The position numbers and the translations under genes were made by a program. Below, piece by piece: positions 4,858 through 53,990 of a stretch of DNA of 64,000 nt (position 1 is the first letter of the stretch; every line of letters begins with the position of its first letter). The notes under the pieces were generated by a model. That model did not search any database. It saw nothing but the letters and a program-made list of their open reading frames with translations, and was not told where the DNA came from. The stretch comes from Centroscyllium fabricii. Its lineage: Eukaryota. Where the stretch lies: contig JBNRSN020000025.1 in NCBI GenBank assembly GCA_051313645.2, positions 496,001 through 560,000 of the forward strand. Direction: 5' to 3'.

Positions 4858-4876
4858 ATTTTATTAACCACTGGAA

Positions 4877-8861: not shown

Positions 8862-8989
8862 TCATAAGAACTCTGATTGTATATATTTTGTTAATGAGCA
8901 CCTTGTAATTATTAGTTTTTTTTCTCACCCCATTGTACCTCTGTGTTTTGTTCACCCCGCTGTACTTTTGTTTTTAAAGAAGGGGTGAA

Positions 8990-10302: not shown

Positions 10303-10390
10303 TCTGGAATTCAGTTCAAGTCTGGAGCTGGTTGAGTCTGGGAAAGGTTTGGATTGGTGGACAAGCAGAAGAGAGGAAGCAGCAGAGGCA
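10303..10390 (+). repeat. Left arm of an 88-bp inverted repeat (partner 52508-52595)
   Basis: Manual alignment gives 80/88 identity to the reverse complement of 52508-52595, no gaps. Confidence 0.9.
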
Positions 10391-10435
10391 CGAGGGGCCA
10401 AGTGGCCTAATCCTACTCCTATTTCTTCTGTTCTT
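10391..10435 (+). mobile_element. CR1-type 3' terminal stem-loop and tail running directly into the satellite
   Basis: CGAGGGGCCAAGTGGCCTAATCCTACTCCTATTTCTTCTGTTCTT matches the LINE 3' end at 55482-55536 on the minus strand. Confidence 0.8.
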
Positions 10436-10567
10436 ATAGATAGATATCATGCTCTTATAGATGGATTTCATGCTCTTTTTGATGGATTTTATGCTCTTAT
10501 AGATGGATTTCATGTTCTTATAGATGGATTTCATGTTCTTACAGATGGATTTCATGTTCTTATAGAT
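10428..10567. repeat. 21-bp satellite, block A
   Basis: About 6-7 monomers before the LINE insertion. Confidence 0.95.
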
Positions 10568-12598
10568 CATAGAATCATAGAAGATAGGAGCAGGAGTAGG
10601 CCATTCAGCCCTTCGAGCCTGCTCCGCCATTCAATGAGATCATGGCTGATCTTTAGCAAGCTAGTACCCCGTCCCCGCCTTTTCTCCATAACCTTTAATC
10701 CCTTTAGCTTGAAGAAATATATCCAATTCCCTCTTGAATATGTTTAATGAACTGGCCTCCACCGCCCTCTGTGGCAGGGAATTCCACAGGCCCACCACTC
10801 TCTGAGTGAAGAAATTCTTCCTCATGTCTGTCCTAAATGGTTTACCCCTTATCCTTAGACTGTGGCCCCTGGTTCTGGACTCCCCCGCCATTGGAAACAT
10901 TCTCTCTGAATCTAACCTGTCCAGACCTTTCAGAATTTTATACGTCTCAATGAGATCGCCTCTCAATCTTCTAAACTCCAACGAGTACAAGCCCAGACTA
11001 CACAATCTCTCTTCGTAGGTCATTCCTGCCATTCCAGGAATCAGCCTGGTGAAACGCCGCTGCACTCCTTCCATGGCAAGAACATCCTTCCTCAGGCGAG
11101 GCGACCAGAACTGTACACAATACTCGAGGTGTGGTCTCACCAGTGCCTTGTACAGCTGCAGTAAGGTATCCTTATTCCTATACTCGAACCCTCTTGATAT
11201 GAAGGCCAACATACCATTTGCCTTCCCAACCGCCTGCTGCACCTGCGTGCTCGCCTTCAGCGACTGGTGCACAAGAACACCCAGGTCTCTCTGCACCTCC
11301 CCATCTCCCAATCTATTGCCATTTAAGTAGTAATCTACCCTCCTGTTTTTGCCCCCAAAGTGGATAACCTCACATTTATCCACATTATAGTGCATCTGCC
11401 ATCTATCTGCCCAGTCCCCCAACTTATCCAAATCGCCCTGTAACTTCCTGACACCCTCTTCAGAGCCTGCCCCCCCTCCTAGTTTGGTGTCATCCGCGAA
11501 TTTGGAGATATTACATTCAATTCCCTGATCCAGATCATTAATATATATTGTAAACAGCTGAGGTCCCAGGACAGACCCCTGCGGTACTCCACTAGTCACC
11601 GGCTGCCACTCAGAAAACGAGCCGTTAATTCCAACTCTCTGTTTTCTGTCTGCCAACCAGTTCTCTATCCACATCAAAACTTTGCCCCCAATCCCATGAG
11701 CCTTAATTTTACATGCTAATCTTTTATGTGGAACCTTATCGAAGGCTTTCTGGAAGTCAAGGTACACCACATCTACTGGCTCTCCCCCATCTACTTCCCG
11801 AGTTACTTCCTCAAAGAATTCCAATAGATTAGTTAAACATGATTTACCTTTTGTAAATCCATGTTGACTCTGTCCGATCTCATCCCTAATTGTCAAATGC
11901 TCCGAGATTACATCCTTGATAATGGACTCGAGCATTTTGCCCACTACTGATGTAAGGCTTACTGGTCTATAATTCCCTGCTTTCTCTCTGCCCCCCTTTT
12001 TAAATAGTGGGGTAACATTAGCCACCCTCCAATCCGTGGGTACTGATCCAGAGTCTATCGAGTTCTGGAAAATGATCCTTAAAGAACCCTCTATTTCCAG
12101 GGCTACCTCTTTAAGTACCCTAGGATGTAGATTATCAGGCCCTGTGGATTTGTCGGCCTTCAATCCCTTTAACTTCCCCAAAACCATCTCCCTAGAAATA
12201 CTGATATCTGTCAGCTCCTCCCTTGCATTAGACCCTATGTTCGCTGCTATCCCTGGGAGGTTGCTTGTGTCCTCCTTTGTGAAGACAGTACCAAAATATG
12301 AATTTAGTTGGTCTGCCATTTCTTTATTCCCCATTATATATTCCCCTGAATCAGACTGCAAGGGACCGACTTGGGATTTTACCAATCTTTTCCTCTTGAT
12401 GTACCTATAAAAGCTTTTGCAGTCAGTTTTTATGTTTGCCGCCAGCTTACATTCGTAATCTATCTTCCCCCTCCCGATTAATCCCTTTGTCTTCCTTTGC
12501 TGTATCCTGAACTGATCCCAATCTTCCGGCCTAGTACTTTTTTTGGCCAATTGATGTGCCCATTTTTTGGATTTAATGTTGTCCCTTATTTCCCTTGT
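10568..12598 (-). mobile_element. 5'-truncated CR1 LINE inserted in the satellite
   Basis: RT ORF, CR1 3' UTR and (TTCTATGA)-type tail, TAGAT shared at both junctions. Confidence 0.95.
10661..12550 (-). CDS. CR1 ORF2 C-terminal part (reverse transcriptase); uninterrupted but lacks the endonuclease
   Basis: GNYRPVSLTS, QHGF, YLDFQKAFDKV, GVPQGSVLGP, KFADD motifs. Confidence 0.9.
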   Translation of the reverse strand: MAKKSTRPEDWDQFRIQQRKTKGLIGRGKIDYECKLAANIKTDCKSFYRYIKRKRLVKSQVGPLQSDSGEYIMGNKEMADQLNSYFGTVFTKEDTSNLPGIAANIGSNAREELTDISISREMVLGKLKGLKADKSTGPDNLHPRVLKEVALEIEGSLRIIFQNSIDSGSVPTDWRVANVTPLFKKGGREKAGNYRPVSLTSVVGKMLESIIKDVISEHLTIRDEIGQSQHGFTKGKSCLTNLLEFFEEVTREVDGGEPVDVVYLDFQKAFDKVPHKRLACKIKAHGIGGKVLMWIENWLADRKQRVGINGSFSEWQPVTSGVPQGSVLGPQLFTIYINDLDQGIECNISKFADDTKLGGGAGSEEGVRKLQGDLDKLGDWADRWQMHYNVDKCEVIHFGGKNRRVDYYLNGNRLGDGEVQRDLGVLVHQSLKASTQVQQAVGKANGMLAFISRGFEYRNKDTLLQLYKALVRPHLEYCVQFWSPRLRKDVLAMEGVQRRFTRLIPGMAGMTYEERLCSLGLYSLEFRRLRGDLIETYKILKGLDRLDSERMFPMAGESRTRGHSLRIRGKPFRTDMRKNFFTQRVVGLWNSLPQRAVEASSLNIFKRELDIFLQAKGIKGYGEKAGTGY

Positions 12599-18500: not shown

Positions 18501-21500
18501 TTCTTATAGATGGATTTCATGCTCTTGTAGAGAGATTTCTGCTCTTATAGATAGATTTCATGCTCTTATAGATAGATTTCATGCTCATATAGATGGATTT
18601 CATGTTCTTATAGATAGATTTCATTCTCTTATAGATAGATTTCATGCTCTTATAGATGGATTTCATGCTCTTATAGATGGATTTCCTGCTCGTATAGATA
18701 GATTTCATTCTCTTATGGATGGATTTCATGTTCTTATAGATGGATTTCATGCTCTTATAGATGGATTTCATGTTCCTATAGATGGATTTCATGTTCTTAT
18801 AGATAGATTTCCTTCTCTTATAGATAGATTTCATGTTCTTATAGATGGATTTCATTCTCTTATAGATGGATTTCATGCTCTTATAGATGGATTTCATGTT
18901 CCTATAGATGGATTTCATGTTCTTATAGATAGATTTCATTCTCTTATAGATAGATTTCATGTTCTTATAGATAGATTTCATGCTCTTATAGATAGATTTC
19001 ATTCTCTTATAGATAGATTTCATGTTCTTATAGATAGATTTCATGCTCTTATAGATGGATTTCATGCTCTTATAGATGGATTTCATGTTCTTATAGATAG
19101 ATTTCATGCTCTTATAGATGGATTTCATTCTCTTATAGATGGATTTCATGCTCTTATAGATGGATTTCATGCTCTTATAGATGGATTTCATGCTCTTATA
19201 AATGGATTTCATGTTCTTATAGATGGATTTCATTCTCTTATAGATGGATTTCATGTTCTTATAGTTCGATTTCATGTTCTTATAGATAGATTTCATTCTC
19301 TTATAGATGGATTTCATGTTCTTCTAGATAGATTTCATGTTCTTATAGATAGATTTCATTCTCTTATAGATGGATTTCATGTTCTTATAGATGGATTTCA
19401 TGCTCTTATAGATGGATTTCATGTTCTTATAGATGGATTTCATGCTCTTATAGATTGATTTCATGCTCTTATAGATGGATTTCCTGCTCGTATAGATAGA
19501 TTTCATTCTCTTATAGATGGATTTCATGCTCTTATAGATGGATTTCATGTTCATATAGATGGATTTCATTCTCTTATAGATAGATTTCATGTTGTTATAG
19601 ATAGATTTCATTCTCTTATAGATGGATTTCATGTTCTTATAGATGGATTTCACGCTCCTATAGATGGATTTCATGTTCTTATAGATGGATTTCATGTTCT
19701 TATAGATGGATTTCACGCTCTTATAGATGGATTTCATGTTCTTATAGATGGATTTCATGTTCTTATAGATAGATTTCATTCTCTTATAGATGGATTTCAT
19801 GCTCTTATAGATGGATTTCATGTTCTTATAGAGAGATTTCATTCTCTTATAGATAGATTTCATGCTCTTATAGATGGATTTCATGCTCTTATAGATGGAT
19901 TTCCTGCTCGTATAGATAGATTTCATTCTCTTATAGATAGATTTCATGCTCTTATAGGTGTATTTCATGTTCTTATAGATGGATTTCATGTTCTTGTAGA
20001 TAGATTTCATTCTCTTATAGGTGGTTTTCATGCTCTTATAGATGGATTTCATGTTCATATAGATGGATTTCATTCTCTTATATATAGATTTCATGTTCTT
20101 ATAGATGGATTTCATGTTCTTATAGATGGATTTCATGCTCTTATAGATGGATTTCATGTTCTTATAGATGGATTTCATGCTCTTATAGATGGATTTCATT
20201 CTCTTATAGATACATTTCATGCTCTTATAGATGGATCTCATGCTCTTATAGATCGATTTCCTGCTCGTATAGATAGATTTCATTCTCTTATAGATGGATT
20301 TCATGCTCTTATAGGTGGATTTCATGTTCTTGTAGAGAGATTTCATGCTCTTATAGATGGATTTCATGCTCTTATAGATGGATTTCCTGCTCGTGTAGAT
20401 GGATTTCATGTTCTTATAGATGGATTTCATGCTCTTATAGATGGATTTCATGCTCTTATAGATAGATTTCATGTTCTTATAGATGGATTTCATTCTCTTA
20501 TAGATAGATTTCATGCTCTTATAGATGGATTTCATGTTCTTATAGATGGATTTCATGCTCTTATAGATGGATTTCATGTTCTTATAGGTGGATTTCATGT
20601 TCTTATAGATGGATTTCATGTTCTTATAGATGGATTTCATGCTCTTATAGGTGGATTTCATGTTCTTATAGATGGATTTCATGTTCTTATAGATGGATTT
20701 CATGCTCTTATAGATGGATTTCATGTTCTTATAGGTGGATTTCATGTTCTTATAGATGGATTTCATGTTCTTATAGATGGATTTCATGCTCTTATAGGTG
20801 GATTTCATGTTCTTATAGATGGATTTCATGCTCTTATAGATGGATTTCATGTTCTTATAGATGGATTTCAAGCTCTTATCGATGGATTTCATTCTCTTGT
20901 AGAGAGATTTCATGTTCTTATAGATGGATTTCATGCTCTTATAAATGGATCTCATTCTCTTATAGATGGATTTCATGCTCTTATAGATGGATCTCATTCT
21001 CTTATAGATGGATTTCATGCTCTTATAGATGGATCTCATTCTCTTATAGATGGATTTCATGTTCTTATAGATGGATTTCATTCTCTTATAGATGGATTTC
21101 ATGCTCTTATAGATGGATCTCATTCTCTTATAGATGGATTTCATGTTCTTATAGATGGATCTCATTCTCTTGTAGAGAGATTTCATGTTCTTATAGATGG
21201 ATTTCATGCTCTTATAGATGGATCTCATTCTCTTATAGATGGATTTCATGTTCTTATTGATGGATTTCATTCTCTTATAGATGGATTTCATGCTCTTATA
21301 GATGGATCTCATTCTCTTATAGATGGATTTCATGTTCTTATAGATAGATTTCATGCTCTTATAGATGGATTTCAAGCTCTTATCGATGGATTTCATGCTC
21401 TTATAGATGGATCTCATTCTCTTATAGATGGATTTCATGTTCTTATAGATGGATTTCATTCTCTTGTAGAGAGATTTCATGCTCTTATAGATGGATTTCA

Positions 21501-24500
21501 TGTTATTATAGATGGATTTCATTCTCTTATAGATGGATTTCATGCTCTTATAGATCGATTTCATGTTATTATAGATGGATTTCATTCTCTTATAGATGGA
21601 TTTCATGCTCTCATAGATGGATTTCATGTTCTTATAGATGGATTTCATGCTCTTATAGATTGATTTCATGCTCTTATAGATGGATTTCCTGCTCGTATAG
21701 ATAGATTTCATTCTCTTATAGATGGATTTCATGCTCTTATAGGTGGATTTCATGTTCTTGTAGAGAGATTTCATGCTCTTATAGATGGATTTCCTGTTCT
21801 TTTAGATAGATTTCATTCTCTTATAGATGGATTTCATGCTCTTATAGATGGATTTCATGCTCTTATAGATGGATTTCCTGTTCTTTTAGATAGATTTCAT
21901 TCTCTTATAGATAGATTTCATGCTCTTATAGATGGATTTCATGCTCTTATAGATGGATTTCCTGCTCGTATAGATGGATTTCATGTTCTTATAGATGGTT
22001 TTCATTCTCTTATTGATGGATTTCATGCTCTTATAGATGGATTTCATGTTCATATAGATGGATTTCATTCTCTTATAGATAGATTTCATTCTCTTATAGA
22101 TGGATTTCATGTTCTTATAGATGGATTTCATGTTCTTATAGATGGATTTCATGTTCTTATAGATGGATTTCATGTTCTTATAGATTGATTTCATGTTCTT
22201 ATAGAGAGATTTCATTCTCTTATAGATAGATTTCATGCTCTTATAGATGGATTTCATGCTCTTATAGATGGATTTCCTGCTCGTATAGATAGATTTCATT
22301 CTCTTATAGATGGATTTCATGCTCTTATAGATGGATTTCCTGTTCTTCTAGATAGATTTCATTCTCTTATAGATGGTTTTCATGCTCTTATAGATGGATT
22401 TCATGTTCATATAGATGGATTTCATTCTCTTATATATAGATTTCATGTTCGTATAGATGGATTTCATGTTCTTATAGATGGATTTCATGCTCTTATAGAT
22501 GGATTTCATGTTCTTATAGATGGATTTCATGCTCTTATAGATAGATTTCATTCTCTTATAGATGGATTTCATGCTCTTATAGATGGATTTCATGCTCTTA
22601 TAGATGGATTTCATGTTCTTATAGATGGATTTCATGCTCTTATAGATAGATTTCATTCTCTTATAGATGGATTTCATGTTCTTATAGATGGATTTCATGT
22701 TCTTATAGATGGATTTCATGCTCTTATAGATGGATTTCCTGTTCTTTTAGATAGATTTCATTCTCTTATAGATAGATTTCATGCTCTTATAGATGGATTT
22801 CATGCTCTTATAGATGGATTTCCTGCTCGTATAGATGGATTTCATGTTCTTATAGATGGTTTTCATTCTCTTATTGATGGATTTCATGCTCTTATAGATG
22901 GATTTCATGTTCATATAGATGGATTTCATTCTCTTATAGATAGATTTCATTCTCTTATAGATGGATTTCATGTTCTTATAGATGGATTTCATGTTCTTAT
23001 AGATGGATTTCATGTTCTTATAGATGGATTTCATGTTCTTATAGATTGATTTCATGTTCTTATAGAGAGATTTCATTCTCTTATAGATAGATTTCATGCT
23101 CTTATAGATGGATTTCATGCTCTTATAGATGGATTTCCTGCTCGTATAGATAGATTTCATTCTCTTATAGATGGATTTCATGCTCTTATAGATGGATTTC
23201 CTGTTCTTCTAGATAGATTTCATTCTCTTATAGATGGTTTTCATGCTCTTATAGATGGATTTCATGTTCATATAGATGGATTTCATTCTCTTATATATAG
23301 ATTTCATGTTCGTATAGATGGATTTCATGTTCTTATAGATGGATTTCATGCTCTTATAGATGGATTTCATGTTCTTATAGATGGATTTCATGCTCTTATA
23401 GATAGATTTCATTCTCTTATAGATGGATTTCATGCTCTTATAGATGGATTTCATGCTCTTATAGATGGATTTCATGTTCTTATAGATGGATTTCATGCTC
23501 TTATAGATAGATTTCATTCTCTTATAGATAGATTTCATTCTCTTATAGATGGATTTCATGTTTTTATAGATGGATTTCATGCTCTTATAGATAGATTTCA
23601 TGTTCTTATAGATGGATTTCATGCTCTTATAGATAGATTTCATTCTCTTATAGATGGATTTCATGTTCTTATAGATGGATTTCATGTTCTTGTAGAGAGA
23701 TTTCATGTTCTTGTAGAGAGATTTCATGTTCTTATTGATGGATTTCCTGCTCGTGTAGATGGATTTCATGTTCTTATAGATGGATTTCATTCTCTTATAG
23801 ATAGATTTCATTCTCTTATAGATGGATTTCATGCTCTTATAGATGGATTTCATGCTCTTATAGATGGATTTCATGTTCTTATAGATGGATTTCATGCTCT
23901 TATAGATGGATTTCATGTTCTTATAGGTGGATTTCATGTTCTTATAGATGGATTTCATGTTCTTATAGATGGATTTCATGCTCTTATAGGTGGATTTCAT
24001 GTTCTTATAGATGGATTTCATTCTCTTATAGATGGATTTCATGTTCTTATAGATGGATTTCATGTTAATATAGATGGATTTCATTCTCTTATAGATAGAT
24101 TTCATGTTCTTATAGATGGATTTCATGCTCTTATAGATGGATTTCATGCTCTTATAGATGGATTTCATGTTAATATAGATGGATTTCATTCTCTTATAGA
24201 TAGATTTCATGTTGTTATAGATGGATTTCACGCTCTTATAGATGGATTTCATGTTCTTATAGATGGATTTCATGTTCTTATAGATAGATTTCATTCTCAT
24301 ATAGATGGATTTCATTTTCTTATAGATGGATTTCATTCTCTTATAGATGGATTTCATGCTCTTATAGATGGATTTCATTCTCTTATAGATAGATTTCATG
24401 CTCTTATAGATGGATTTCATGTTCTTATAGAGAGATTTCATGCTCTTATAGATAGATTTAATTCTCTAAAAGATGGATTTCATGCTCTAACAGATGGATT

Positions 24501-27500
24501 TCATGCTCTTATAGATGGATTTCATGCTCTTATAGATGGATTTCATGCTCTTATAGATGGATTTCATGTTCTTATAGATAGATTTCATGCTCTTATAGAT
24601 GGATTTCCTGCTCGTATAGATAGATTTCATTCTCTTATAGATAGATTTCATTCTCTTATAGATGGATTTCATGTTCTTATAGATTTCATGCTCTTATAGA
24701 TGGATTTCATGCTCTTATAGATGGATTTCATGTTCTTATAGATTTCATGCTCTTATAGATGGATTTCATGCTCTTATAGATGGATTTCCTGCTCGTATAG
24801 ATAGATTTCATTCTCTTATAGATAGATTTCATTCTCTTATAGATGGATTTCATGCTCTTATAGATGGATTTCATGTTCTTAAAGATGGATTTTTTGCTCT
24901 TAGAGATGGATTTCATGCTCTTATAGATGGATTTCATGTTCTTATAGTTGGATTTCATGTTCTTATAGATAGATTTCATTCTCTTATAGATGGATTTCAT
25001 GTTCTTATAGATGGATTTCATGCTCTTATAGATGGATTTCATGTTCTTATAGATGGATTTCATGCTCTTATAGATGGATTTCATTCTCTTATAGCTGGAT
25101 TTCATGCTCTTATCGATGGATTTCATGCACTTATAGATGGATTTCATGTTCATATAGATAGATTTCATGCTCTTATAGATGGATTTCATGCACTTATAGA
25201 TAGATTTCATGCTCTTATAGATGGATTTCATGCTCTTATAGATAGATTTCATGCTCTTATAGATGGATTTCATGTTCTTATAGATGGATTTCATGTTCTT
25301 ATAGATGGATTTCTTGCTCTTGTAGAGAGATTTCTGCTCTTATAGATAGATTTCATGCTCTTATAGATAGATTTCATGCTCTTATAGATGGATTTCATGT
25401 TCTTATAGATAGATTTCATTCTCTTATAGATAGATTTCATGCTCTTATAGATGGATTTTCTGCTCGTATAGATAGATTTCATTCTCTTATGGATGGATTT
25501 CATGTTCTTATAGATGGATTTCATGCTCTTATAGATGGATTTCATGTTCCTATAGATGGATTTCATGTTCTTATAGATAGATTTCATTCTCTTATAGATA
25601 GATTTCATGTTCTTATAGATGGATTTCATTCTCTTATAGATGGATTTCATGCTCTTATAGATGGATTTCATGTTCTTATAGAGAGATTTCATTCTCTTAT
25701 AGATAGATTTCATGCTCTTATAGATAGATTTCATGCTCTTATAGATGGATTTCATTTTCTTATAGATAGATTTCATGCTCTTATAGATGGATTTCATTCT
25801 CTTATAGATGGATTTCATGCTCTTATAGATGGATTTCATGCTCTTATAGATGGATTTCATGCTCTTATAGATGGATTTCATGTTCTTATAGATAGAATTC
25901 ATGCTCTTATAGATGGATTTCATGCTCTTATGGATAGATTTCATTCTCTTATAGATGGATTTCATGTTCTTATAGGTGGATTTCATGCTCTTATAGATGG
26001 ATTTCATGCTCTTATAGATAGATTTCATTCTCTTATAGATGGATTTCCTGTTCTTATAGATGGATTTCATGTTCTTATAGATGGATTTCATGCTCTTATA
26101 GATAGATTTCATGCTCTTATAGATGGATTTCATGCTCTTATAGATAGATTTCATTCTCTTATAGATAGATTTCATGCTCTTATAGATGGATTTCATGCTC
26201 TTATAGATGGATTTCCTGCTCGTATAGATGGATTTCATGTTCTTATAGATGGTTTTCATTCTCTTATTGATGGATTTCATGCTCTTATAGATGGATTTCA
26301 TGTTCATATAGATGGATTTCATTCTCTTATAGATAGATTTCATTCTCTTATAGATGGATTTCATGTTCTTATAGATGGATTTCATGTTCTTATAGATGGA
26401 TTTCATGTTCTTATAGATGGATTTCATGTTCTTATAGATTGATTTCATGTTCCTATAGAGAGATTTCATTCTCTTATAGATAGATTTCATGCTCTTATAG
26501 ATGGATTTCATGCTCTTATAGATGGATTTCCTGCTCGTATAGATAGATTTCATTCTCTTATAGATGGATTTCATGCTCTTATAGATGGATTTCCTGTTCT
26601 TTTAGATAGATTTCATTCTCTTATAGATGGTTTTCATGCTCTTATAGATGGATTTCATGTTCATATAGATGGATTTCATTCTCTTATATATAGATTTCAT
26701 GCTCTTATAGATGGATTTCATGTTCTTATAGATGGATTTCATGCTCTTATAGATAGATTTCATTCTCTTATAGATGGATTTCATGCTCTTATAGATGGAT
26801 TTCATGCTCTTATAGATGGATTTCATGTTCTTATAGATGGATTTCATGCTCTTATAGATAGATTTCATTCTCTTATAGATAGATTTCATTCTCTTATAGA
26901 TGGATTTCATGTTCTTATAGATGGATTTCATGCTCTTATAGATGGATTTCATGTTCTTATAGATGGATTTCATGCTCTTATAGATAGATTTCATTCTCTT
27001 ATAGATGGATTTCATGTTCTTATAGATGGATTTCATGTTCTTGTAGAGAGATTTCATGTTCTTGTAGAGAGATTTCATGTTCTTATTGATGGATTTCCTG
27101 CTCGTGTAGATGGATTTCATGTTCTTATAGATGGATTTCATTCTCTTATAGATAGATTTCATTCTCTTATAGATGGATTTCATGCTCTTATAGATGGATT
27201 TCATGCTCTTATAGATGGATTTCATGTTCTTATAGATGGATTTCATGCTCTTATAGATGGATTTCATGTTCTTATAGGTGGATATCATGTTCTTATAGAT
27301 GGATTTCATGTTCTTATAGATGGATTTCATGCTCTTATAGGTGGATTTCATGTTCTTATAGATGGATTTCATTCTCTTATAGATGGATTTCATGTTCTTA
27401 TAGATGGATTTCATGTTAATATAGATGGATTTCATTCTCTTATAGATAGATTTCATGTTGTTATAGATGGATTTCATGCTCTTATAGATGGATTTCATGT

Positions 27501-33500: not shown

Positions 33501-36500
33501 TATAGATAGATTTCATGCTCTTATAGATAGATTTCATGCTCTTATAGATGGATTTCATTTTCTTATAGATAGATTTCATGCTCTTATAGATGGATTTCAT
33601 TCTCTTATAGATGGATTTCATGCTCTTATAGATGGATTTCATGCTCTTATAGATGGATTTCATGCTCTTATAGATGGATTTCATGTTCTTATAGATAGAA
33701 TTCATGCTCTTATAGATGGATTTCATGCTCTTATGGATAGATTTCATTCTCTTATAGATGGATTTCATGTTCTTATAGGTGGATTTCATGCTCTTATAGA
33801 TGGATTTCATGCTCTTATAGATAGATTTCATTCTCTTATAGATGGATTTCCTGTTCTTATAGATGGATTTCATGTTCTTATAGATGGATTTCATGCTCTT
33901 ATAGATAGATTTCATGCTCTTATAGATGGATTTCATGCTCTTATAGATAGATTTCATTCTCTTATAGATAGATTTCATGCTCTTATAGATGGATTTCATG
34001 CTCTTATAGATGGATTTCCTGCTCGTATAGATGGATTTCATGTTCTTATAGATGGTTTTCATTCTCTTATTGATGGATTTCATGCTCTTATAGATGGATT
34101 TCATGTTCATATAGATGGATTTCATTCTCTTATAGATAGATTTCATTCTCTTATAGATGGATTTCATGTTCTTATAGATGGATTTCATGTTCTTATAGAT
34201 GGATTTCATGTTCTTATAGATGGATTTCATGTTCTTATAGATTGATTTCATGTTCCTATAGAGAGATTTCATTCTCTTATAGATAGATTTCATGCTCTTA
34301 TAGATGGATTTCATGCTCTTATAGATGGATTTCCTGCTCGTATAGATAGATTTCATTCTCTTATAGATGGATTTCATGCTCTTATAGATGGATTTCCTGT
34401 TCTTTTAGATAGATTTCATTCTCTTATAGATGGTTTTCATGCTCTTATAGATGGATTTCATGTTCATATAGATGGATTTCATTCTCTTATATATAGATTT
34501 CATGCTCTTATAGATGGATTTCATGTTCTTATAGATGGATTTCATGCTCTTATAGATAGATTTCATTCTCTTATAGATGGATTTCATGCTCTTATAGATG
34601 GATTTCATGCTCTTATAGATGGATTTCATGTTCTTATAGATGGATTTCATGCTCTTATAGATAGATTTCATTCTCTTATAGATAGATTTCATTCTCTTAT
34701 AGATGGATTTCATGTTCTTATAGATGGATTTCATGCTCTTATAGATGGATTTCATGTTCTTATAGATGGATTTCATGCTCTTATAGATAGATTTCATTCT
34801 CTTATAGATGGATTTCATGTTCTTATAGATGGATTTCATGTTCTTGTAGAGAGATTTCATGTTCTTGTAGAGAGATTTCATGTTCTTATTGATGGATTTC
34901 CTGCTCGTGTAGATGGATTTCATGTTCTTATAGATGGATTTCATTCTCTTATAGATAGATTTAATTCTCTTATAGATGGATTTCATGCTCTTATAGATGG
35001 ATTTCATGCTCTTATAGATGGATTTCATGTTCTTATAGATGGATTTCATGCTCTTATAGATGGATTTCATGTTCTTATAGGTGGATATCATGTTCTTATA
35101 GATGGATTTCATGTTCTTATAGATGGATTTCATGCTCTTATAGGTGGATTTCATGTTCTTATAGATGGATTTCATTCTCTTATAGATGGATTTCATGTTC
35201 TTATAGATGGATTTCATGTTAATATAGATGGATTTCATTCTCTTATAGATAGATTTCATGTTGTTATAGATGGATTTCATGCTCTTATAGATGGATTTCA
35301 TGTTCTTATAGATGGATTTCATGTTCTTATAGATAGATTTCATTCTCATATAGATGGATTTCATGTTCTTATAGATGGATTTCATTCTCTTATAGATGAA
35401 TTTCATGCTCTTATAGATGGATTTCATTCTCTTATAGATAGATTTCATGCTCTTATAGATGGATTTCATGTTCTTATAGAGAGATTTCATGCTCTTATAG
35501 ATAGATTTCATTCTCTAAAAGATGGATTTCATGCTCTAACAGATGGATTTCATGCTCTTATAGATGGATTTCATGCTCTTATAGATGGATTTCATGCTCT
35601 TATAGATGGATTTCATGTTCTTATAGATAGATTTCATGCTCTTATAGATGGATTTCCTGCTCGTATAGATAGATTTCATTCTCTTATAGATAGATTTCAT
35701 TCTCTTATAGATGGATTTCATGTTCTTATAGATTTCATGCTCTTATAGATGGATTTCATGCTCTTATAGATGGATTTCATGTTCTTATAGATTTCATGCT
35801 CTTATAGATGGATTTCATGCTCTTATAGATGGATTTCCTGCTCGTATAGATAGATTTCATTCTCTTATAGATAGATTTCATTCTCTTATAGATGGATTTC
35901 ATGCTCTTATAGATGGATTTCATGTTCTTAAAGATGGATTTTTTGCTCTTAGAGATGGATTTCATGCTCTTATAGATGGATTTCATGTTCTTATAGTTGG
36001 ATTTCATGTTCTTATAGATAGATTTCATTCTCTTATAGATGGATTTCATGTTCTTATAGATGGATTTCATGCTCTTATAGATGGATTTCATGTTCTTATA
36101 GATGGATTTCATGCTCTTATAGATGGATTTCATTCTCTTATAGCTGGATTTCATGCTCTTATCGATGGATTTCATGCACTTATAGATGGATTTCATGTTC
36201 ATATAGATAGATTTCATGCTCTTATAGATGGATTTCATGCACTTATAGATAGATTTCATGCTCTTATAGATGGATTTCATGCTCTTATAGATAGATTTCA
36301 TGCTCTTATAGATGGATTTCATGTTCTTATAGATGGATTTCATGTTCTTATAGATGGATTTCATGCTCTTGTAGAGAGATTTCTGCTCTTATAGATAGAT
36401 TTCATGCTCTTATAGATAGATTTCATGCTCTTATAGATGGATTTCATGTTCTTATAGATAGATTTCATTCTCTTATAGATAGATTTCATGCTCTTATAGA

Positions 36501-43318: not shown

Positions 43319-46300
43319 TGTCACAGGGTGCCTGTTCCTTTAAGAATGAGAAACAGTTTTTGTGGTGCTTCACAGCTGTTTTGAGGACTGGGTTCCCTTG
43401 TTATGTCATTAATTATTCTATTATCTGTCTATTGCTAGTTGTGTCCTGCTCTCATTGCCTCCAAGTTATTGGCTATCACCAAAGGGTTTGCTTGCTGGTT
43501 TTAGTTCTTAAACTGGAGGTAGGCATGAGAGCAGCGCGGGATCATTGTACTGTATTGTATTGTAATGTGTTACGGAACTGGACTTCTACCACACATTCTA
43601 CAGGCCACTGGACAAAGTGGTTACTGCTGTTGAGCTGAGTGGCCGTCAGAGGCAAGGAGGTTTGGAGATCGACTGACTCAGCCTTTACTTTGCACTCTGC
43701 TATTTCAGGTGCTCAGGCTGAGTTGCCCGACAGGGTCATTGGGGTGGAACTCATATCACTCTGCCTTGACAGTGCGCCCTGCTATCGGGAACCCAGCAAT
43801 GGACAACTCATATGTGGAGTAAGGGCGTTCCCCTGCTTGTGGATCTGAATCCACTACTTGGACATTCGTTTCTTCATCCGAACCCAGGTTTGGACATTGG
43901 ATACCTGTATGCAGAAGCTGTTCCCAAATCCTCTACGAAGTATTTGGATTGTGATGTCCTACTCGCAGAGGAGAACTTGTTCGTTTCTCTTTAAGTATTT
44001 GGATTGTGATGTCCTGCTTCTAGAGGAGAGCTCGTTTAAGTTGGACAGTTATGCCTGGACTTGTATTCCTCGGGAGAATGACGCGCTTGGTTGCGTGGCA
44101 CCCCTCTATCCATTACTCACTATTTTGGGAAGTCTGTGCCAGTCTTTAGATAAGACTTGTGTTCAATATGTTTCTTATATATTTGTATGTTTATACTATT
44201 TTATGGGGTTGTGTAATAAAGGAGTTTAGTTATATAAGACGTTTCAGTGTCTCTGCATTTGGGCCTCGCCCTCATTCCATTTACACCTACCCGCTACAGA
44301 ATGATCCCGCCACGCCAAATTTGGGGCTCAGCAGACACTGTAGCGTCTAAGCACTCCTTAAATTTTTTTTTGGTAGACTGTTGTCTCTTCTCTGTACCCT
44401 CCGCCCACCCTATTTCGGCATATTGGGTATTTGGGCCGTCGCCGTCGGCCCTTAAGGGGGGGGTCCTGTCACAGGGTGCCTGTTCCTTTAAGAATGAGAA
44501 ACAGTTTTTGTGGTGCTTCACAGCTGTTTTGAGGACTGGGTTCCCTTGTTATGTCATTAATTATTCTATTATCTGTCTATTGCTAGTTGTGTCCTGCTCT
44601 CATTGCCTCCAAGTTATTGGCTATCACCAAAGGGTTTGCTTGCTGGTTTTAGTTCTTAAACTGGAGGTAGGCATGAGAGCAGCGCGGGATCATTGTACTG
44701 TATTGTATTGTAATGTGTTACGGAACTGGACTTCTACCACACATTCTACAGGCCACTGGACAAAGTGGTTACTGCTGTTGAGCTGAGTGGCCGTCAGAGG
44801 CAAGGAGGTTTGGAGATCGACTGACTCAGCCTTTACTTTGCACTCTGCTATTTCAGGTGCTCAGGCTGAGTTGCCCGACAGGGGCATTGGGGTGGAACTC
44901 ATATCACTCTGCCTTGACAGTGCGCCCTGCTATCGGGAACCCAGCAATGGACAACTCATATGTGGAGTAAGGGCGTTCCCCTGCTTGTGGATCTGAATCC
45001 ACTACTTGGACATTCGTTTCTTCATCCGAACCCAGGTTTGGACATTGGATACCTGTATGCAGAAGCTGTTCCCAAATCCTCTACGAAGTATTTGGATTGT
45101 GATGTCCTACTCGCAGAGGAGAACTTGTTCGTTTCTCTTTAAGTATTTGGATTGTGATGTCCTGCTTCTAGAGGAGAGCTCGTTTAAGTTGGACAGTTAT
45201 GCCTGGACTTGTATTCCTCGGGAGAATGACGCGCTTGGTTGCGTGGCACCCCTCTATCCATTACTCACTATTTTGGGAAGTCTGTGCCAGTCTTTAGATA
45301 AGACTTGTGTTCAATATGTTTCTTATATATTTGTATGTTTATACTATTTTATGGGGTTGTGTAATAAAGGAGTTTAGTTATATAAGACGTTTCAGTGTCT
45401 CTGCATTTGGGCCTCGCCCTCATTCCATTTACACCTACCCGCTACAGAATGATCCCGCCACGCCAAATTTGGGGCTCAGCAGACACTGTAGCGTCTAAGC
45501 ACTCCTTAAATTTTTTTTTTGTAGACTGTTGTCTCTTCTCTGTACCCTCCGCCCACCCTATTTCGGCATATTGGGTATTTGGGCCGTCGCCGTCGGCCCT
45601 TAAGGGGGGGGTCCTGTCACAGGGTGCCTGTTCCTTTAAGAATGAGAAACAGTTTTTGTGGTGCTTCACAGCTGTTTTGAGGACTGGGTTCCCTTGTTAT
45701 GTCATTAATTATTCTATTATCTGTCTATTGCTAGTTGTGTCCTGCTCTCATTGCCTCCAAGTTATTGGCTATCACCAAAGGGTTTGCTTGCTGGTTTTAG
45801 TTCTTAAACTGGAGGTAGGCATGAGAGCAGCGCGGGATCATTGTACTGTATTGTATTGTAATGTGTTACGGAACTGGACTTCTACCACACATTCTACAGG
45901 CCACTGGACGAAGTGGTTACTGCTGTTGAGCTGAGTGGCCGTCAGAGGCAAGGAGGTTTGGGGATCGACTGACTCAGCCTTTACTTTGCACTCTGCTATT
46001 TCAGGTGCTCAGGCTGAGTTGCCCGACAGGGGCATTGGGGTGGAACTCATATCACTCTGCCTTGACAGTGCGCCCTGCTATCGGGAACCCAGCAATGGAC
46101 AACTCATATGTGGAGTAAGGGCGTTCCCCTGCTTGTGGATCTGAATCCACTACTTGGACATTCGTTTCTTCATCCGAACCCAGGTTTGGACATTGGATAC
46201 CTGTATGCAGAAGCTGTTCCCAAATCCTCTACGAAGTATTTGGATTGTGATGTCCTACTCGCAGAGGAGAACTTGTTCGTTTCTCTTTAAGTATTTGGAT

Positions 46301-46595
46301 TGTGATGTCCTGCTTCTAGAGGAGAGCTCGTTTAAGTTGGACAGTTATGCCTGGACTTGTATTCCTCGGGAGAATGACACGCTTGGTTGCGTGGCACCCC
46401 TCTATCCATTACTCACTATTTTGGGAAGTCTGTGCCAGTCTTTAGATAAGACTTGTGTTCAATATGTTTCTTATATATTTGTATGTTTATACTATTTTAT
46501 GGGGTTGTGTAATAAAGGAGTTTAGTTATATAAGACATTTCAGTGTCTCTGCATTTGGGCCTCGCCCTCATTCCGTTAACACCAAATCCGCTACA
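43319..46595 (+). mobile_element. Non-coding tandem LTR element (LTR-int-LTR-int-LTR, 1148-bp period; TRIM-like)
   Basis: LTRs 43319-44298, 44467-45446 and 45615-46595 (TGTCACA...CTACA); 168-bp internal parts ending in a hairpin plus PPT AAGGGGGGGG; 5-bp TSD CTAAC (43314-43318, 46596-46600). Confidence 0.88.
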
Positions 46596-46758
46596 CTAAC
46601 AGATGGATTTCATGCTCTTATAGATGGAGTTCATGCTCTTATAGATGGATTTCTTGCTCTTATAGATGGATTTCATGCTCTTATAGATGGATTTCATGTT
46701 CTTATAGATAGATTTCATGCTCTTATAGATGGATTTCCTGCTCGTATAGATAGATTTC
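46596..46758. repeat. 21-bp satellite, block C
   Basis: About 8 monomers between the two LTR insertions. Confidence 0.95.
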
Positions 46759-47756
46759 TGTAACGGAGGTGTGTGGGGCCCAAATGCAAAGACACTGATA
46801 AAACTGTCTAGGTCTTAAATCCTTTATATACCAAACAGTAATGAAAAAACATACATGCATACATTCAAGAAGTTACAAAACATAATTAAATGGCATACAA
46901 ATAGTTATAACAGAAAACAAGTTCCTTTACGAACTGGTACTAAACTTCCCTTGGTGCATGGAACGATACGCAACCAAGCGCATCATAGTGTTGTGAATTA
47001 CATGTCCAACCCTGACTACAGGTGGTAGAGAGAAAATGTCCAGGAAGTTGAATTAGGAATACTCCCGAGTCCGCCCTACGGTCGAAACTCACTCCAACGG
47101 AGTCTTCAGAGGAAGAATCCATCTTCACAAACAAGGAAACTCCTCACATACCCTACTGAAACGTCCAAACCTCAGTTCGGGTGATATCGACCAATGTCCA
47201 GGAAGTTGAATTAGGAATACTCCCGAGTCCGCCCTATGGTCGAAACTCACTCCAACGGAGTCTTCAGAGCAAGAATCCCTGATCTACTTAGCAGGGGAAC
47301 GCCCTTACTTATCTAATGGAATGTCCAAACCTGAGTTCAGGAGGTAAAGTGCAATGTCCTGAATGTAGACAACCGTAGTTCTCCGAAGTCCGCTCCACAG
47401 CTAAGACTTTACTCTACCCGAGTTTCCTGAAGAGAATACATCATCTACAAGGCAGGGGAACACCCACACCCATTGCCTCTCCAGCAGCTCAGACAGCAAC
47501 CACTTCTTCCAATGGTTCGTAGTAATGAGTAGTAAGTAGAGTCTAATGATCCGGCCTCTGCCTGGTCAAAGCACCCAGCTTATAAGCCAAAACAGGCAAA
47601 CCAGATTATTTAGTGCTAGCCAATAAGCTGCAGGTATTGATAACCAGGAACACACAGGTATGTGAAACAGTTAATTGAAATACAATGAACCAAAACAGAG
47701 AAACAAAACCTAGAATTCCAAAATGGATTCCTTAAAGGGGAATGCCATCTGTGACA
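46759..47756 (-). mobile_element. Solo LTR related to the tandem element, opposite orientation
   Basis: Minus strand starts TGTCACAG and ends CCGTTACA; shares AGTAAGGGCGTTCCCCTGCT, CAGTGTCT.TGCATTTGGGCC and GGATCATT with the 980-bp LTR; GATTTC on both flanks; internal ~85-bp duplication (~47036 and ~47194). Confidence 0.82.
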
Positions 47757-50700
47757 GATTTCATTCTCTTGTAGAGAGATTTCATGCTCTTCTAGATGGA
47801 TTTCATGCTCTTCTAGATGGATTTCATGTTCTTATAGATAGATTTCATTCTCTTATAGATAGATTTCATGTTCTTATAGATGGATTTCATTCTCTTATAG
47901 ATGGATTTCATGCTCTTATAGATGGATTTCATGTTCTTATAGAGAGATTTCATTCTCTTATAGATAGATTTCATGCTCTTATAGATGGATTTCATGCTCT
48001 TATAGATGTATTTCATGTTCTTATAGAGAGATTTCATGCTCTTATAGATGGATTTCATGCTCTTATAGATAGATTTCATTCTCTAAAAGATGGATTTCAT
48101 GCTCTAACAGATGGATTTCATGCTCTTATAGATGGAGTTCATGCTCTTATAGATGGATTTCATGATCTTATAGATGGATTTCATGCTCTTATAGATGGAT
48201 TTCATGTTCTTATAGATAGATTTCATGCTCTTATAGATGGATTTCTTGCTCGTATAGATAGATTTCATACTCTTATAGATAGATTTCATTCTCTTATAGA
48301 TGGATTTCATGCTCTTATAGATGGATTTCATGTTCCTATAGATGGATTTCATGTTCTTATAGATAGATTTCATTCTCTTATAGATAGATTTCATGTTCTT
48401 ATAGATGGATTTCATTCTCTTATAGTTGGATTTCATGCTCTTATAGATGGATTTCATGTTCTTATAGAGAGATTTCATTCTCTTATAGATAGATTTCATG
48501 CTCTTATAGATGGATTTCATGCTCTTATAGATGGATTTCATGTTCTTATAGAGAGATTTCATGCTCTTATAGATGGATTTCATGCTCTTATAGATAGATT
48601 TCATTCTCTAACAGATGATTTCATGCTCTTATAGATGGAGTTCATGCTCTTATAGATGGATTTCATGATCTTATAGATAGATTTCATTCTCTTATAGATG
48701 GAGTTCATGCTCTTGTAGAGAGATTTCATGCTCTTATAGATAGATTTCATGCTCTTATAGATAGATTTCATGCTCTTATAGATGGATTTCATGTTCTTAT
48801 AGATAGATTTCATTCTCTTATAGATAGATTTCATGCTCTTATAGATGGATATCATGCTCTTATAGATGGATTTCCTGCTCGTATAGATAGATTTCATGCT
48901 CTTATAGATAGATTTCATTCTCTTATAGATAGATTTCATGCTCTTATAGATGGATTTCATGCTCTTATAGATGGATTTCCTGCTCGTATAGATAGATTTC
49001 ATTCTCTTATGGATGGATTTCATGTTCTTATAGATGGATTTCATGCTCTTATAGATGGATTTCATGTTCCTATAGATGGATTTCATGTTCTTATAGATAG
49101 ATTTCATTCTCTTATAGATGGATTTCATGCTCTTATAGATGGATTTCATGTTCTTATAGAGAGATTTCATTCTCTTATAGATAGATTTCATGCTCTTATA
49201 GATGGATTTCATGCTCTTATAGATGGATTTCATGTTCTTATAGAGAGATTTCATGCTCTTATAGATGGATTTCATGCTCTTATAGATAGATTTCATTCTC
49301 TAAAAGATGGATTTCATGCTCTAAAAGATGGATTTCATGCTCTTATAGATGGAGTTCATGCTCTTATAGATGGATTTCATGATCTTATAGATGGATTTCA
49401 TGCTCTTATAGATGGATTTCATGTTCTTATAGATAGATTTCATGCTCTTATAGATGGATTTCTTGCTCGTATAGATAGATTTCATACTCTTATAGATAGA
49501 TTTCATTCTCTTATAGATAGATTTCGTGCTCTTGTAGAGAGATTTCATGCTCTTATAGATAGATTTCATGCTCTTATAAATAGATTTCATGCTCTTATAG
49601 ATGGATTTCTTGCTCGTATAGATAGATTTCATACTCTTATAGATAGATTTCATTCTCTTATAGATAGATTTCATGCTCTTGTAGAGAGATTTCATGCTCT
49701 TATAGATAGATTTCATGCTCTTATAAATAGATTTCATGCTCTTATAGATAGATTTCATGCTCTTATAAATAGATTTCATGCTCTTATAGATAGATTTCAT
49801 TCTCTTATAGATAGATTTCATGCTCTTATAGATGGATTTCATGCTTTTATAGATGGATTTCCTGCTCGTATAGATAGATTTCATGCTCTTATACATAGAT
49901 TTCATTCTCTTATAGATAGATTTCATGCTCTTATAGATGGATTTCCTGCTCGTGTAGATAGATTTCATGCTCTTATAGATAGATTTCATTCTCTTATAGA
50001 TAGATTTCATGCTCGTATAGATGGATTTCATGCTCTTATAGATGGATTTCATGATCTTATAGATGGATTTCCTGCTCGTATAGATAGATTTCATTCTCTT
50101 ATAGATGGAGTTCATGCTCTTGTAGAGAGATTTCATGCTCTTATAGATAGATTTCATGCTCTTATAGATAGATTTCATGCTCTTATAGATGGATTTCATG
50201 TTCTTATAGATAGATTTCATTCTCTTATAGATAGATTTCATGCTCTTATAGATGGATTTCATGCTCTTATAGATGGATTTCCTGCTCGTATAGGTAGATT
50301 TCATGCTCTTATACATAGATTTCATTCTCTTATAGATAGATTTCATGCTCTTATAGATAGATTTCATTCTCTTATAGATAGATTTCATGCTCGTATAGAT
50401 GGATTTCATGCTCTTATAGATAGGTTTCATTCTCTTATAGATAGATTTCATGCTCTTATAGATGGATTTCATGTTCTTATAGATAGATTTCATTCTCTTA
50501 TAGATAGATTTCATGCTCTTTTAGATGGATTTCATGTTCTTATAGATGGATTTCATGTTCTTATAGATGGATTTCATGCTCTTAAAATGGATTTCATGTT
50601 CTTATAGATACATTTCATGCTCTTTTAGATGGATTTCATGCTCTTATAGATGAATTTCATGCTCTTATAGATGGATTTCATGCTCTTATAGATGGATTTC

Positions 50701-52235
50701 ATGCTCGTATAGATAGATTTCATGCTCTTATAGATAGATTTCATGCTCTTATAGATAGATTTCATTCTCTTATAGATGGATTTCATGCTCTTATAGATGA
50801 ATTTCATGTTCTTATAGATGGATTTCATGTTCTTATAGATGGATTTCATGCTCTTATAGATGGATTTCATGTTCTTATAGATAGATTTCATACTCTTATA
50901 GATAGATTTCATTCTCTTATAGATAGATTTCATGCTCTTGTAGAGAGATTTCATGCTCTTATAGATAGATTTCATGCTCTTATAAATAGATTTCATGCTC
51001 TTATAGATAGATTTCATGCTCTTATAAATAGATTTCATGCTCTTATAGATAGATTTCATTCTCTTATAGATAGATTTCATGCTCTTATAGATGGATTTCA
51101 TGCTTTTATAGATGGATTTCCTGCTCGTATAGATAGATTTCATGCTCTTATACATAGATTTCATTCTCTTATAGATAGATTTCATGCTCTTATAGATGGA
51201 TTTCCTGCTCGTGTAGATAGATTTCATGCTCTTATAGATAGATTTCATTCTCTTATAGATAGATTTCATGCTCGTATAGATGGATTTCATGCTCTTATAG
51301 ATGGATTTCATGATCTTATAGATGGATTTCCTGCTCGTATAGATAGATTTCATTCTCTTATAGATGGAGTTCATGCTCTTGTAGAGAGATTTCATGCTCT
51401 TATAGATAGATTTCATGCTCTTATAGATGGATTTCATGTTCTTATAGATAGATTTCATTCTCTTATAGATAGATTTCATGCTCTTATAGATGGATTTCAT
51501 GCTCTTATAGATGGATTTCCTGCTCGTATAGATAGATTTCATGCTCTTATACATAGATTTCATTCTCTTATAGATAGATTTCATGCTCTTATAGATAGAT
51601 TTCATTCTCTTATAGATAGATTTCATGCTCGTATAGATGGATTTCATGCTCTTATAGATAGGTTTCATTCTCTTATAGATAGATTTCATGCTCTTATAGA
51701 TGGATTTCATGTTCTTATAGATAGATTTCATTCTCTTATAGATAGATTTCATGCTCTTTTAGATGGATTTCATGTTCTTATAGATGGATTTCATGTTCTT
51801 ATAGATGGATTTCATTCTCTTTTATAGTTAAATTTCATTCTCTTATAGATGGATTTCATGCTCTTATAGATGGATTTCATGCTCTTATAGATGGATTTCA
51901 TGCTCGTATAGATAGATTTCATGCTCTTATAGATAGATTTCATGCTCTTATAGATAGATTTCATTCTCTTATAGATGGATTTAATGCTCTTATAGATGAA
52001 TTTCATGTTCTTATAGATGGATTTCATGTTCTTATAGATGGATTTCATGCTCTTATAGATGGATTTCATGCTCTTATAGATAGATTTCATGCTCTTATAG
52101 ATGGATTTCATTCTCTTATAGATAGATTTCATGCTCTTATATATAGGTTTCATGCTCTTATAGATAGATTTCATGCTCTTATAGATGGATTTCATGCTCT
52201 TATAGATGGATTTCATGCTCTTATCGATGGATTTC
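47757..52235. repeat. 21-bp satellite, block D
   Basis: Same monomer, richer in GATAG and GCT variants; 1238-bp internal duplication. Confidence 0.98.
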
Positions 52236-52378
52236 TAAACACAAAATGTATCAAGAGGCATGGGGAGAGAGCGGGAATGTGGTATTGAGGTAGAGGATCA
52301 GCCATGATATTGAATGGCGGAGCAGGCTCGAAGGGTGAATGGCTGACTCCTGCTCCTATTTTTCTATGCTTCTATATT
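52223..52378 (+). mobile_element. CR1 3'-end fragment continuous with the last satellite monomer
   Basis: Reads IDGFLNTKCIKRHGERAGMWY*, collinear with the ORF2 C-termini in this window (IDSFLEEKGIKGYGERAGKWT*), followed by the CR1 3' UTR and tail. Confidence 0.85.
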
Positions 52379-52507
52379 TCCATAATCCTTGGTTACTTTT
52401 TTCCGCCATCAAATGTATCTCTAAATCCCTCTCCCCTGCCCCCTCCAGCCTCACCTCCAACAACAAGCCCTAGCTGCTCATGGGCTACTTTATCATTAAG
52501 ATTGAGC

Positions 52508-52595
52508 TGCCTCTGCTGCTTCCACCCTTCTGCTTGTCCACCAATCCAAACCTTCCCCAGGCTCAACCTGCACCAGCCCTGAACTGAATTCCAGA
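52508..52595 (-). repeat. Right arm of the 88-bp inverted repeat
   Basis: Reverse complement of 10303-10390 (80/88). Confidence 0.9.
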
Positions 52596-53967: not shown

Positions 53968-53990
53968 TTTTTTTTTTATCCATTGATGGG

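Follow-up and report, generated by a model that had tools for sequence, protein, structure and literature searches.

The 64,000-nucleotide window of the shark Centroscyllium fabricii analyzed here (contig JBNRSN020000025.1, positions 496,001 to 560,000) holds a long array of a 21-bp satellite, and with it the question of where a satellite monomer comes from. How single-copy DNA first becomes a tandem repeat can seldom be seen, since turnover removes the parental sequences, and known mechanisms explain only about 6% of the human repeats derived from transposable elements (TEs) in the account given by PMC3389668. At this locus both edges of the array are CR1 3' ends in the same orientation, which we call parents A and B, and the 21-mer is likely the amplified seam of a tail-to-internal CR1 tandem that grew where it now lies. 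The features of the locus are as follows:

10303–10390, plus strand: left arm of an 88-bp inverted repeat (X), host of the CR1 pieces; 90.9% identical to the opposite strand of 52508–52595.
10386–10437, plus strand: parent A, a 52-bp 5'-truncated CR1 3' end with inner hairpin and 8-mer tail; 46 of 52 positions identical to the CR1 at 55488–55539 (junction alignment and fold).
10436–10567, plus strand: satellite block 1, about 6.5 monomers, joined directly to the parent A tail.
10568–12598, minus strand: younger 5'-truncated CR1 within the array, with a 651-codon open reverse transcriptase frame and 4–5 nt of satellite duplicated.
12599–43318, plus strand: satellite block 2, about 1,465 monomers.
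20097–35733, plus strand: 7,803-bp tandem duplication in block 2, with 1 mismatch in 7,834 bp.
43319–46595, plus strand: LTR-spacer-LTR-spacer-LTR insert with a 1,148-bp period, TG...CA ends and a 5-bp target duplication.
46596–46758, plus strand: satellite block 3, about 7.5 monomers.
46759–47756, minus strand: solo LTR, a distant relative of the triple LTR, with a 6-bp target duplication.
47757–52235, plus strand: satellite block 4, about 213 monomers, the last being a 13-nt half monomer common to parent B.
52223–52381, plus strand: parent B, a second 5'-truncated CR1 3' end with the last 21 ORF2 codons, stop, 3'UTR and decayed tail.
52508–52595, minus strand: right arm of X, its outer side cut by a fragment of another LINE.
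55483–57692, minus strand: separate CR1 outside the array with a tail of the parent A type, used as the in-window reference.

Summed over the four blocks, the array comprises about 1,690 homogenized head-to-tail monomers in 35,492 bp (35.5 kb), in agreement with the roughly 1,700 copies given in an earlier note on this DNA. The note's picture of an array continuous between both parents has to be replaced by one of four blocks, split by the younger CR1 and by two LTR inserts. The CR1 insert, 2 kb in length, separates the 6.5 monomers of block 1 at parent A from the rest, and the triple-LTR insert (43319–46595) is non-coding and TRIM/ERV-like.

The right edge runs in frame into a CR1 3' end, as had been proposed: 52223–52288 encodes IDGFLNTKCIKRHGERAGMWY*, followed by a CR1 3'UTR and tail that share 79–89% identity with four further CR1 ends of the window. 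At the left edge, the array was said to start from a CR1 3' stem-loop and tail; the CR1 3' end is confirmed by the 46/52 identity, but the stem-loop is not complete, since only the inner hairpin is present and the outer stem is missing. Folding accordingly retains the outer stem in parent B and only the inner hairpin in parent A, with weak z-scores (−0.2 to −1.5). Assignment to the CR1 clade follows from ORF2 similarity to CR1 reverse transcriptases in the long copies of the window and in parent B (parent A has no coding part), and from a 3'UTR stem-loop followed by an 8-mer tail, recognized by sequence match to other CR1 ends in the window. RVT_1 is present in the long copies, whose closest named matches are from Hypanus and Chiloscyllium (74–75%), and the 17 residues after the motif in parent B match relatives at up to 11 positions. 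The CR1 reverse transcriptase is thought to recognize the 3' stem and tail.

CR1-clade LINEs are expected to produce target duplications of 3–5 bp (PMC4245944). The CR1 inserted in the array has one of 4–5 nt, and none was recognizable by eye in the flanks of parent A or parent B. Both parent pieces look decayed, and the origin of the satellite is therefore probably old; the recency implied by the earlier word "birth" is overstated, given this decay and the three later insertions within the array.

The proposed composition of the monomer, 8 nt of CR1 tail followed by 13 nt of ORF2, was scored in the register that the right flank sets. Matches number 20 and 19 of 21 for the two commonest monomers, the scores of the 1,666 full monomers all lie between 16 and 21, and a negative control with the register 13 nt off reached only shuffle level (14–15 of 21). 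Shuffled sequences attained 19 in 4 of 30,000 cases and 20 in none. The split is thus beyond chance, but it is not exact as claimed, a full 21/21 match being found in just 31 of the 1,666. An unguided tiling search over 1,910 CR1 positions and 42 phases chose the same site and the same split; this result leans on allowing either of two CR1 copies, because single copies favored another site. That preference counts against a junction origin, as do the 9 of 300 shuffles that reached 19/21 in the free search and the G7 and C17 carried by the majority of monomers (position 17 is C in 1,113 of 1,695 slices and the tail-like T in 574). Together, the unguided search and the fixed-register shuffles argue strongly that the monomer derives from the junction of two CR1 ends, as the earlier note proposed.

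The 13-nt half had been read as the ID(R/G)F codons of ORF2. As a whole it is absent from both long CR1 copies of the window, each of which matches 10 of 13 positions, but together they account for 13 of 13. Every position of the A-variant half matches one or the other copy, and the 12 nt upstream match at 5. The 31 non-satellite bases past the array, in their best alignment to both long CR1s, place the 13-mer on I-D-x-F codons, with the best offset tying with one other in one of the two. Among 4-mers at this site IDRF ranks second in frequency, occurring in 12 of the 89 relatives that cover the site (120 examined). Three observations run against the junction model here: IDGF occurs in none of the 89, IDRF in none of the five proteins nearest parent B (three IDKF, one VDKF, one VDRF), and the half monomer at the end of the array departs from the best-fitting 13-mer at two positions.

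The tail half bears on the possibility that parent B was the only source of the monomer, a deletion or circularization having joined the 5' end of this CR1 to its own tail, with parent A incidental. The ATGC form of the majority monomer is present in the parent B tail, and the C17 monomer scores 7 against that tail, near its score of 8 against the decayed left tail. However, three gaps are needed for this derivation as opposed to one 2-nt gap for the A-type tail, against which the tail half of the two monomers scores 12 and 10 (7 and 7 against parent B), and the array continues from the tail of parent A without a break; we consider an origin from parent B alone very improbable. The continuation of host repeat X was rejected as a source of the monomer, with a score of 2.

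The same scores can be set against a history in which an older, unrelated satellite came first and two CR1s joined its edges by chance microhomology, one through its tail on the left and the other through its truncated 5' end on the right. Microhomology joins are frequent at truncated LINE 5' ends (PMC4245944), long overlaps do occur here (the LINE junction at about 52581 matches at 13 of 15 bases, including an exact core of 10 nt), one CR1 did enter the array at a tail-like spot, and a 12/13 match of the body at the site was obtained in 118 of 30,000 shuffles. Such a history nevertheless calls for two independent events at the exact edges with no satellite outside, whereas the true CR1 insertion is flanked by satellite on either side. 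Elsewhere in the window, overlaps between CR1 5' joins and their targets are limited to about 2–5 nt, and the monomer would by chance have to tile end to end from both parents, the 20/21 that no shuffle reached. We regard this order of events as quite improbable.

In the preferred reading, the amplified CR1 seam, an older inverted-repeat element would have received two 5'-truncated CR1 3' ends with different tail types in head-to-tail order, through either two insertions at the same site or a single reverse transcription with a template jump. The structure is visible in the window; from both edges and the monomer we infer the history, in which the parent A tail was joined to truncated parent B. 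One tail octamer and the first 13 nt of the downstream piece would then have been duplicated. The earlier note attributed this to slippage on ATTTC microhomology, but the spacing of the motifs at the left junction is 23 bp, which predicts a 23-mer, not a 21-mer, and no 23-mer relic was found in the array; slippage therefore needs an extra 2-bp deletion or has to give way to another mechanism. Likewise, the unit of a microhomology-mediated tandem duplication (Haber-Louis/MTD) should equal the spacing of its arms, which would hold here (23 vs 21 bp) only given a later 2-nt deletion. Misalignment on the shared ATTTC(T) may accordingly have produced a 23-mer that lost 2 nt before amplification. 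Alternatively, templated extra nucleotides may have been added during LINE 5' joining, a route for which exact homology would be unnecessary; at such joins, microhomology is used or additional bases are copied from the flank (PMC4245944).

The later steps have left direct traces. Amplification proceeded by the repeated duplication of blocks of 0.8 to 7.8 kb, carrying three common single-base variants across the array, and the younger CR1 and the two LTR elements inserted into it subsequently. Monomers diverge by 2–4% at non-diagnostic sites. No short higher-order periodicity was detected at lags of 1–12; a 372-monomer block alone stands out. The 7,803-bp duplication is either very recent or an assembly error, and copy number is soft because of it. 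This duplication, and two of the three LTR copies differing at 1 of 984 positions, could suggest that the array is largely an assembly artefact, which we consider extremely improbable: it contains 131 monomer types and nested duplications of several sizes with 0–7 mismatches, the three insertions bear proper target duplications, and such an error could alter the copy number but not the junctions.

Expansion in place is favored because the parents are in register, X brackets the locus, and the edges are richer in private variants. In the left block, 3 of 6 monomers are of unique types, compared with 4 of 30 at the right end and none of 30 in the middle, off-length units being counted as unique. 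The presence of X on both sides suggests that a few hundred bp once separated the flanks. Against the junction model, a steady gradient toward the parent-like form is absent at the edges, and the tail-like T17 is lowest in the right block (0.10–0.15). A junction-derived monomer could also have reached this locus as a secondary copy that expanded here, either by duplication of the parent A-(21)n-parent B unit with its flanks or as an SVA-like composite moved by the CR1 3' end of parent B. The foldable 3' stem and tail kept in parent B and the great plasticity of the array are compatible with this, and the view of one window leaves room for paralogues. However, the 5' end of parent A overlaps the host repeat by about 4–5 nt in the junction alignment, like an ordinary truncated insertion, the host inverted repeat lies on both sides, and a target duplication around the A-to-B unit was not seen by eye; a secondary copy is unlikely.

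TE-derived satellites and tail-to-internal LINE tandems are already known, and a literature search found no junction-only monomer with both parents in register. Tail-to-internal LINE tandems are described as common in Drosophila (McGurk and Barbash 2018, PMC5932611), where a tail joined to a 5'-truncated copy is likewise a proposed satellite seed. In the portions of that work used here, the element itself is repeated and the expansion seen amounts to about 16 hobo copies, whereas at this locus only the 21 bp across the seam are repeated, some 1,690 times, and the tails of the parents are of different types. The locus therefore has the tail-to-internal, head-to-tail dimer of a tandem-TE satellite but a unit consisting of the junction only, not of a whole or truncated element. 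Maize CRM1TR/CRM4TR, as presented in the relevant parts of PMC3648361, are also retrotransposon-derived arrays that a new junction defines and that later received nested insertions, and there, too, short direct repeats for one-step formation were not found. They originate from LTR elements, have internally repetitive monomers of hundreds of bp, and are explained by the authors through a deletion either inside a single element or between nested ones; the unit here is minisatellite-sized and joins two LINE ends.

The chicken HinfI repeat and Cen2/3/4/7/11 (PMC9659126, PMC6947457) include a CR1 3' region with part of ORF2 in a tandem repeat, although by the descriptions in these reviews it is a contiguous piece of one CR1 and not a seam of two. 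Minisatellites born inside TEs, as treated in the sections of PMC3389668 and PMC13167724 considered, resemble this one in their short unit and in a candidate end microhomology of 5–6 nt, but the unit here is 2 nt below the microhomology spacing and spans two elements; in PMC3389668, moreover, TE-derived repeats that known mechanisms leave unexplained have mostly only two units. SVA-type composite retroposons share the order of retroposon piece, tandem repeat and retroposon 3' end; unlike these, the array is tens of kb long and dispersed copies are not in evidence in this one window.

An array with both dead-retrotransposon parents attached is an unusually complete record of a satellite DNA origin. 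Because the host site and three later insertions are preserved along with both parents, comparison with related shark genomes can directly test what the ancestral unit was, in which order the events occurred and how the array grew. The locus also indicates that a satellite monomer without TE homology by ordinary search can be the seam of two TE pieces, a class missed by standard homology screens. It is distinctly unlikely that this locus alone founded an elasmobranch satellite family, with the first duplication made during retrotransposition and the 21-mer spread by the CR1 reverse transcriptase via the attached CR1 3' end. On that reading the first duplication may have occurred by template jump or templated 5' joining, and the result would be a LINE-made, LINE-dispersed satellite whose whole history is readable at one locus.

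Dating by the epaulette shark pedigree mutation rate, given as 7e-10 per generation in the passage of PMC10587355 used, was set aside, as a divergence of several percent yields implausibly large ages. Rfam gave no match on the whole window, the fold of 52370–52620 is unremarkable (z 0.5), and parent B had no match among plasmids. A search for contaminating shark DNA in bacterial and archaeal genomes returned no match to an exact 34-nt satellite pattern; two matches to a 20-nt CR1 3'UTR pattern were dismissed as chance, both lacking CR1 context. The repeat reading frame of the satellite had no match at E 1e-5 among 8,000 scored candidates of a protein collection, and this provides neither a sign of a protein nor a clue to taxonomic range. 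Judged from its sequence, the array is most likely a neutral heterochromatic satellite, and its long reading frames of a 7-residue repeat arise because the 21-bp unit contains no stop in some frames.

The 21-mer satellite occupies four blocks totalling 35,492 bp (approximately 1,690 units), and the gaps between them are insertions, each flanked by satellite on both sides. The three insertions that interrupt the array are not mentioned in the earlier note.

Blocks of the 21-mer satellite (Tandem Repeats Finder) and the insertions in the array
10432-10567, 21-mer block 1
10568-12598, minus strand, CR1 insertion with an open 651-codon RT frame; 4-5 nt duplicated
12599-43315, 21-mer block 2
43319-46595, triple LTR insertion; 5-bp duplication
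46601-46758, 21-mer block 3
46759-47756, solo LTR insertion; 6-bp duplication
47756-52235, 21-mer block 4

The triple LTR insertion consists of tandem LTRs with spacers of about 165 bp and no coding sequence (TRIM- or ERV-like); its copies 1 and 2 differ at one position, and it is distantly related to the solo LTR. When the array was decomposed into 1,695 slices, 1,666 had the full 21-nt length; the monomers fall into 131 types. Three positions carry high-frequency variants (position 7, G 1,159 and A 496; position 16, G 1,291 and T 394; position 17, C 1,113 and T 574), while divergence at the other sites is 2-4%. No short higher-order period was found. Expansion proceeded through the duplication of blocks between 0.8 and 7.8 kb in size; the largest is a 7,803-bp tandem (20097-35733) with 1 mismatch in 7,834 bp, which may reflect very recent unequal exchange or an assembly error. 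That the array is largely an assembly artefact is scarcely credible, and an artefact could affect nothing but the copy number. One frame per strand of the 21-mer lacks stops, producing open frames of up to 1,007 codons (12599-52235); the single piece searched returned no protein relatives.

At the left edge, the array adjoins a 52-bp, 5'-truncated CR1 3' end (parent A; 10386-10437, plus strand) that agrees with the CR1 at 55488-55539 in 46 of its 52 bases and shares its tail type. The CR1 3' end and tail described previously are present, but of the stem-loop only the inner hairpin is retained. The proposed in-frame passage into a second CR1 3' end (parent B; 52223-52381, plus strand) at the right edge is borne out: the final half monomer continues as IDGFLNTKCIKRHGERAGMWY*, followed by a CR1 3'UTR that is 79-89% identical to four other CR1 ends in the window and carries 3-bp and 1-bp deletions. 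The 31 bases directly past the array have no satellite content, and their best alignment to the two long CR1s (10568-12598 and 55483-57692, both minus) makes the 13-nt half monomer coincide with the I-D-x-F codons of ORF2, with one tie in offset in one of the two copies. In a short CR1 piece (53990-54146, minus) the 5' truncation falls at the same ORF2 codons as in parent B, give or take a few bases; two window CR1 pieces ending there may point to a hotspot of truncation or to a short form that is non-autonomous.

At the I-D-x-F site, the 13-mer of the monomer form with A at position 7 matches each long CR1 at 10/13 bases and the two combined at 13/13, with agreement at only 5 of the 12 upstream bases. 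When 13 nt are compared with either long CR1 and 8 nt with the tail (maximum 21), the two commonest monomers reach 20/21 and 19/21; among 30,000 base-composition shuffles, with all 42 phases allowed, 19/21 occurred in four and 20/21 in none. A free search over any split and any of 1,910 CR1 positions arrived at this site, and at the 8+13 split, with each of the three monomers tried (19/21 in 9 of 300 shuffles, 20/21 in 0 of 300), although against single CR1 copies another site had the top score. The split thus exceeds chance, but is not exact as claimed: a 21/21 fit is seen in just 31 of 1,666 monomers, the majority departing from the tail at position 17. Among 120 relatives, 89 cover the motif, 81 with D (IDRF 12, IDKF 10, LDIA 16, IDGF 0), and the five closest to parent B have IDKF (three), VDKF and VDRF. 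Judged by these sequences, I-D-R-F counts as an ordinary variant here at the protein level. Derivation from parent B alone gives a poorer fit and is very improbable. Somewhat less remote, yet still improbable, is a pre-existing satellite to which two CR1s became joined by chance. This reading is genuinely supported: the array has been hit by one CR1, and close by, the junction of a LINE fragment and an inverted repeat (52581-52600) overlaps at 13/15 bases (10-nt exact core), long for such a junction. It requires, however, that two events fell precisely at the edges and that the two parents between them happen to tile the monomer.

Growth of the junction-derived array in place is suggested by its surroundings. 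An 88-bp inverted repeat (arms 10303-10390 and 52508-52595, 91% identical) brackets the whole structure, and once array and inserts are taken out, about 330 bp would separate the arms, the layout of a small inverted-repeat element; the gypsy element at 4279-9727 is enclosed by a comparable pair. The 5' end of parent A and the left arm share an overlap of about 4-5 nt. Unique monomer types, off-length units included, number 3/6 in the left block, 2/30 at the start of block 2, 0/30 in the middle and 4/30 at the right end. This distribution fits old, unhomogenised array edges, but no gradient of parent-like alleles towards the edges was found, which counts against them. Overall, the satellite is real, well supported as junction-derived and probably grown in place; that this locus is a secondary copy is unlikely. 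A continuation of the host inverted repeat (52487-52507, minus) loosely resembles the tail-to-monomer seam and was possibly the site of tail annealing; as a monomer source it was rejected, the resemblance being too weak.

The proposed ATTTC slippage does not by itself yield a 21-bp unit. The ATTTC in the tail region of parent A and its counterpart in the first monomer are 23 bp apart rather than 21, and the monomer-to-tail alignment requires a 2-nt gap, so simple slippage needs a second step; no 23-mer relics survive within the array. Alternatively, templated extra bases could have been added at the LINE 5' join, where, according to PMC4245944, such bases are often copied from the flank. Nor does "birth" describe the locus well: because both parents look decayed and the three insertions postdate the array, we infer an old, preserved origin rather than a birth under way.

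Tail-to-internal tandems have been proposed as satellite seeds by McGurk and Barbash (PMC5932611), and the structure here works as one, although their repeat unit is a whole element, which this monomer is not. The monomer also departs from the rule on unit length in microhomology-mediated duplication (PMC13167724). In maize CRM repeats (PMC3648361), too, a new junction underlies the repeat and the short repeats that would be expected are missing. CR1-derived chicken satellites are known, according to two reviews (PMC9659126, PMC6947457); the main text of PMC3389668 contains neither "junction" nor "boundar", and the accessible text of PMC11406177, which reports shark satellites, mentions neither CR1 nor a 21-bp unit. 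Our literature search, which took in few subscription papers, found neither a monomer consisting solely of a junction whose two parents are still in place nor this 21-mer, which may stand in supplementary shark satellite catalogues.

Transposons make up most of the window beyond the array, among them gypsy-type LTR elements and pieces of CR1 and other LINEs. The window is cartilaginous-fish DNA: for the CR1 ORF2 at 55761-57200, the closest named relatives are from Hypanus sabinus and Chiloscyllium punctatum (74-75% identity). This CR1 is nested in a gypsy-type element (54450-61193; LTRs 54450-54730 and 60912-61193), has a 3'UTR about 190 nt longer than other CR1 ends and has a block of different sequence past its 5' end. 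Another, near-intact gypsy-type element (4576-9273) encodes protease, RT, RNase H and integrase in a frame of 1,284 codons; its LTRs show differences at 5/290 positions, it has a 5-bp target duplication, and it sits between inverted-repeat arms of about 190 bp (4279-4460 and 9531-9727). The segment at 54190-54400, which we take to be SINE-like with a head resembling a tRNA, adjoins the short CR1 piece at 53990-54146, and 3738-3919 holds a degenerate minisatellite with a 10-bp unit in about 18 copies.
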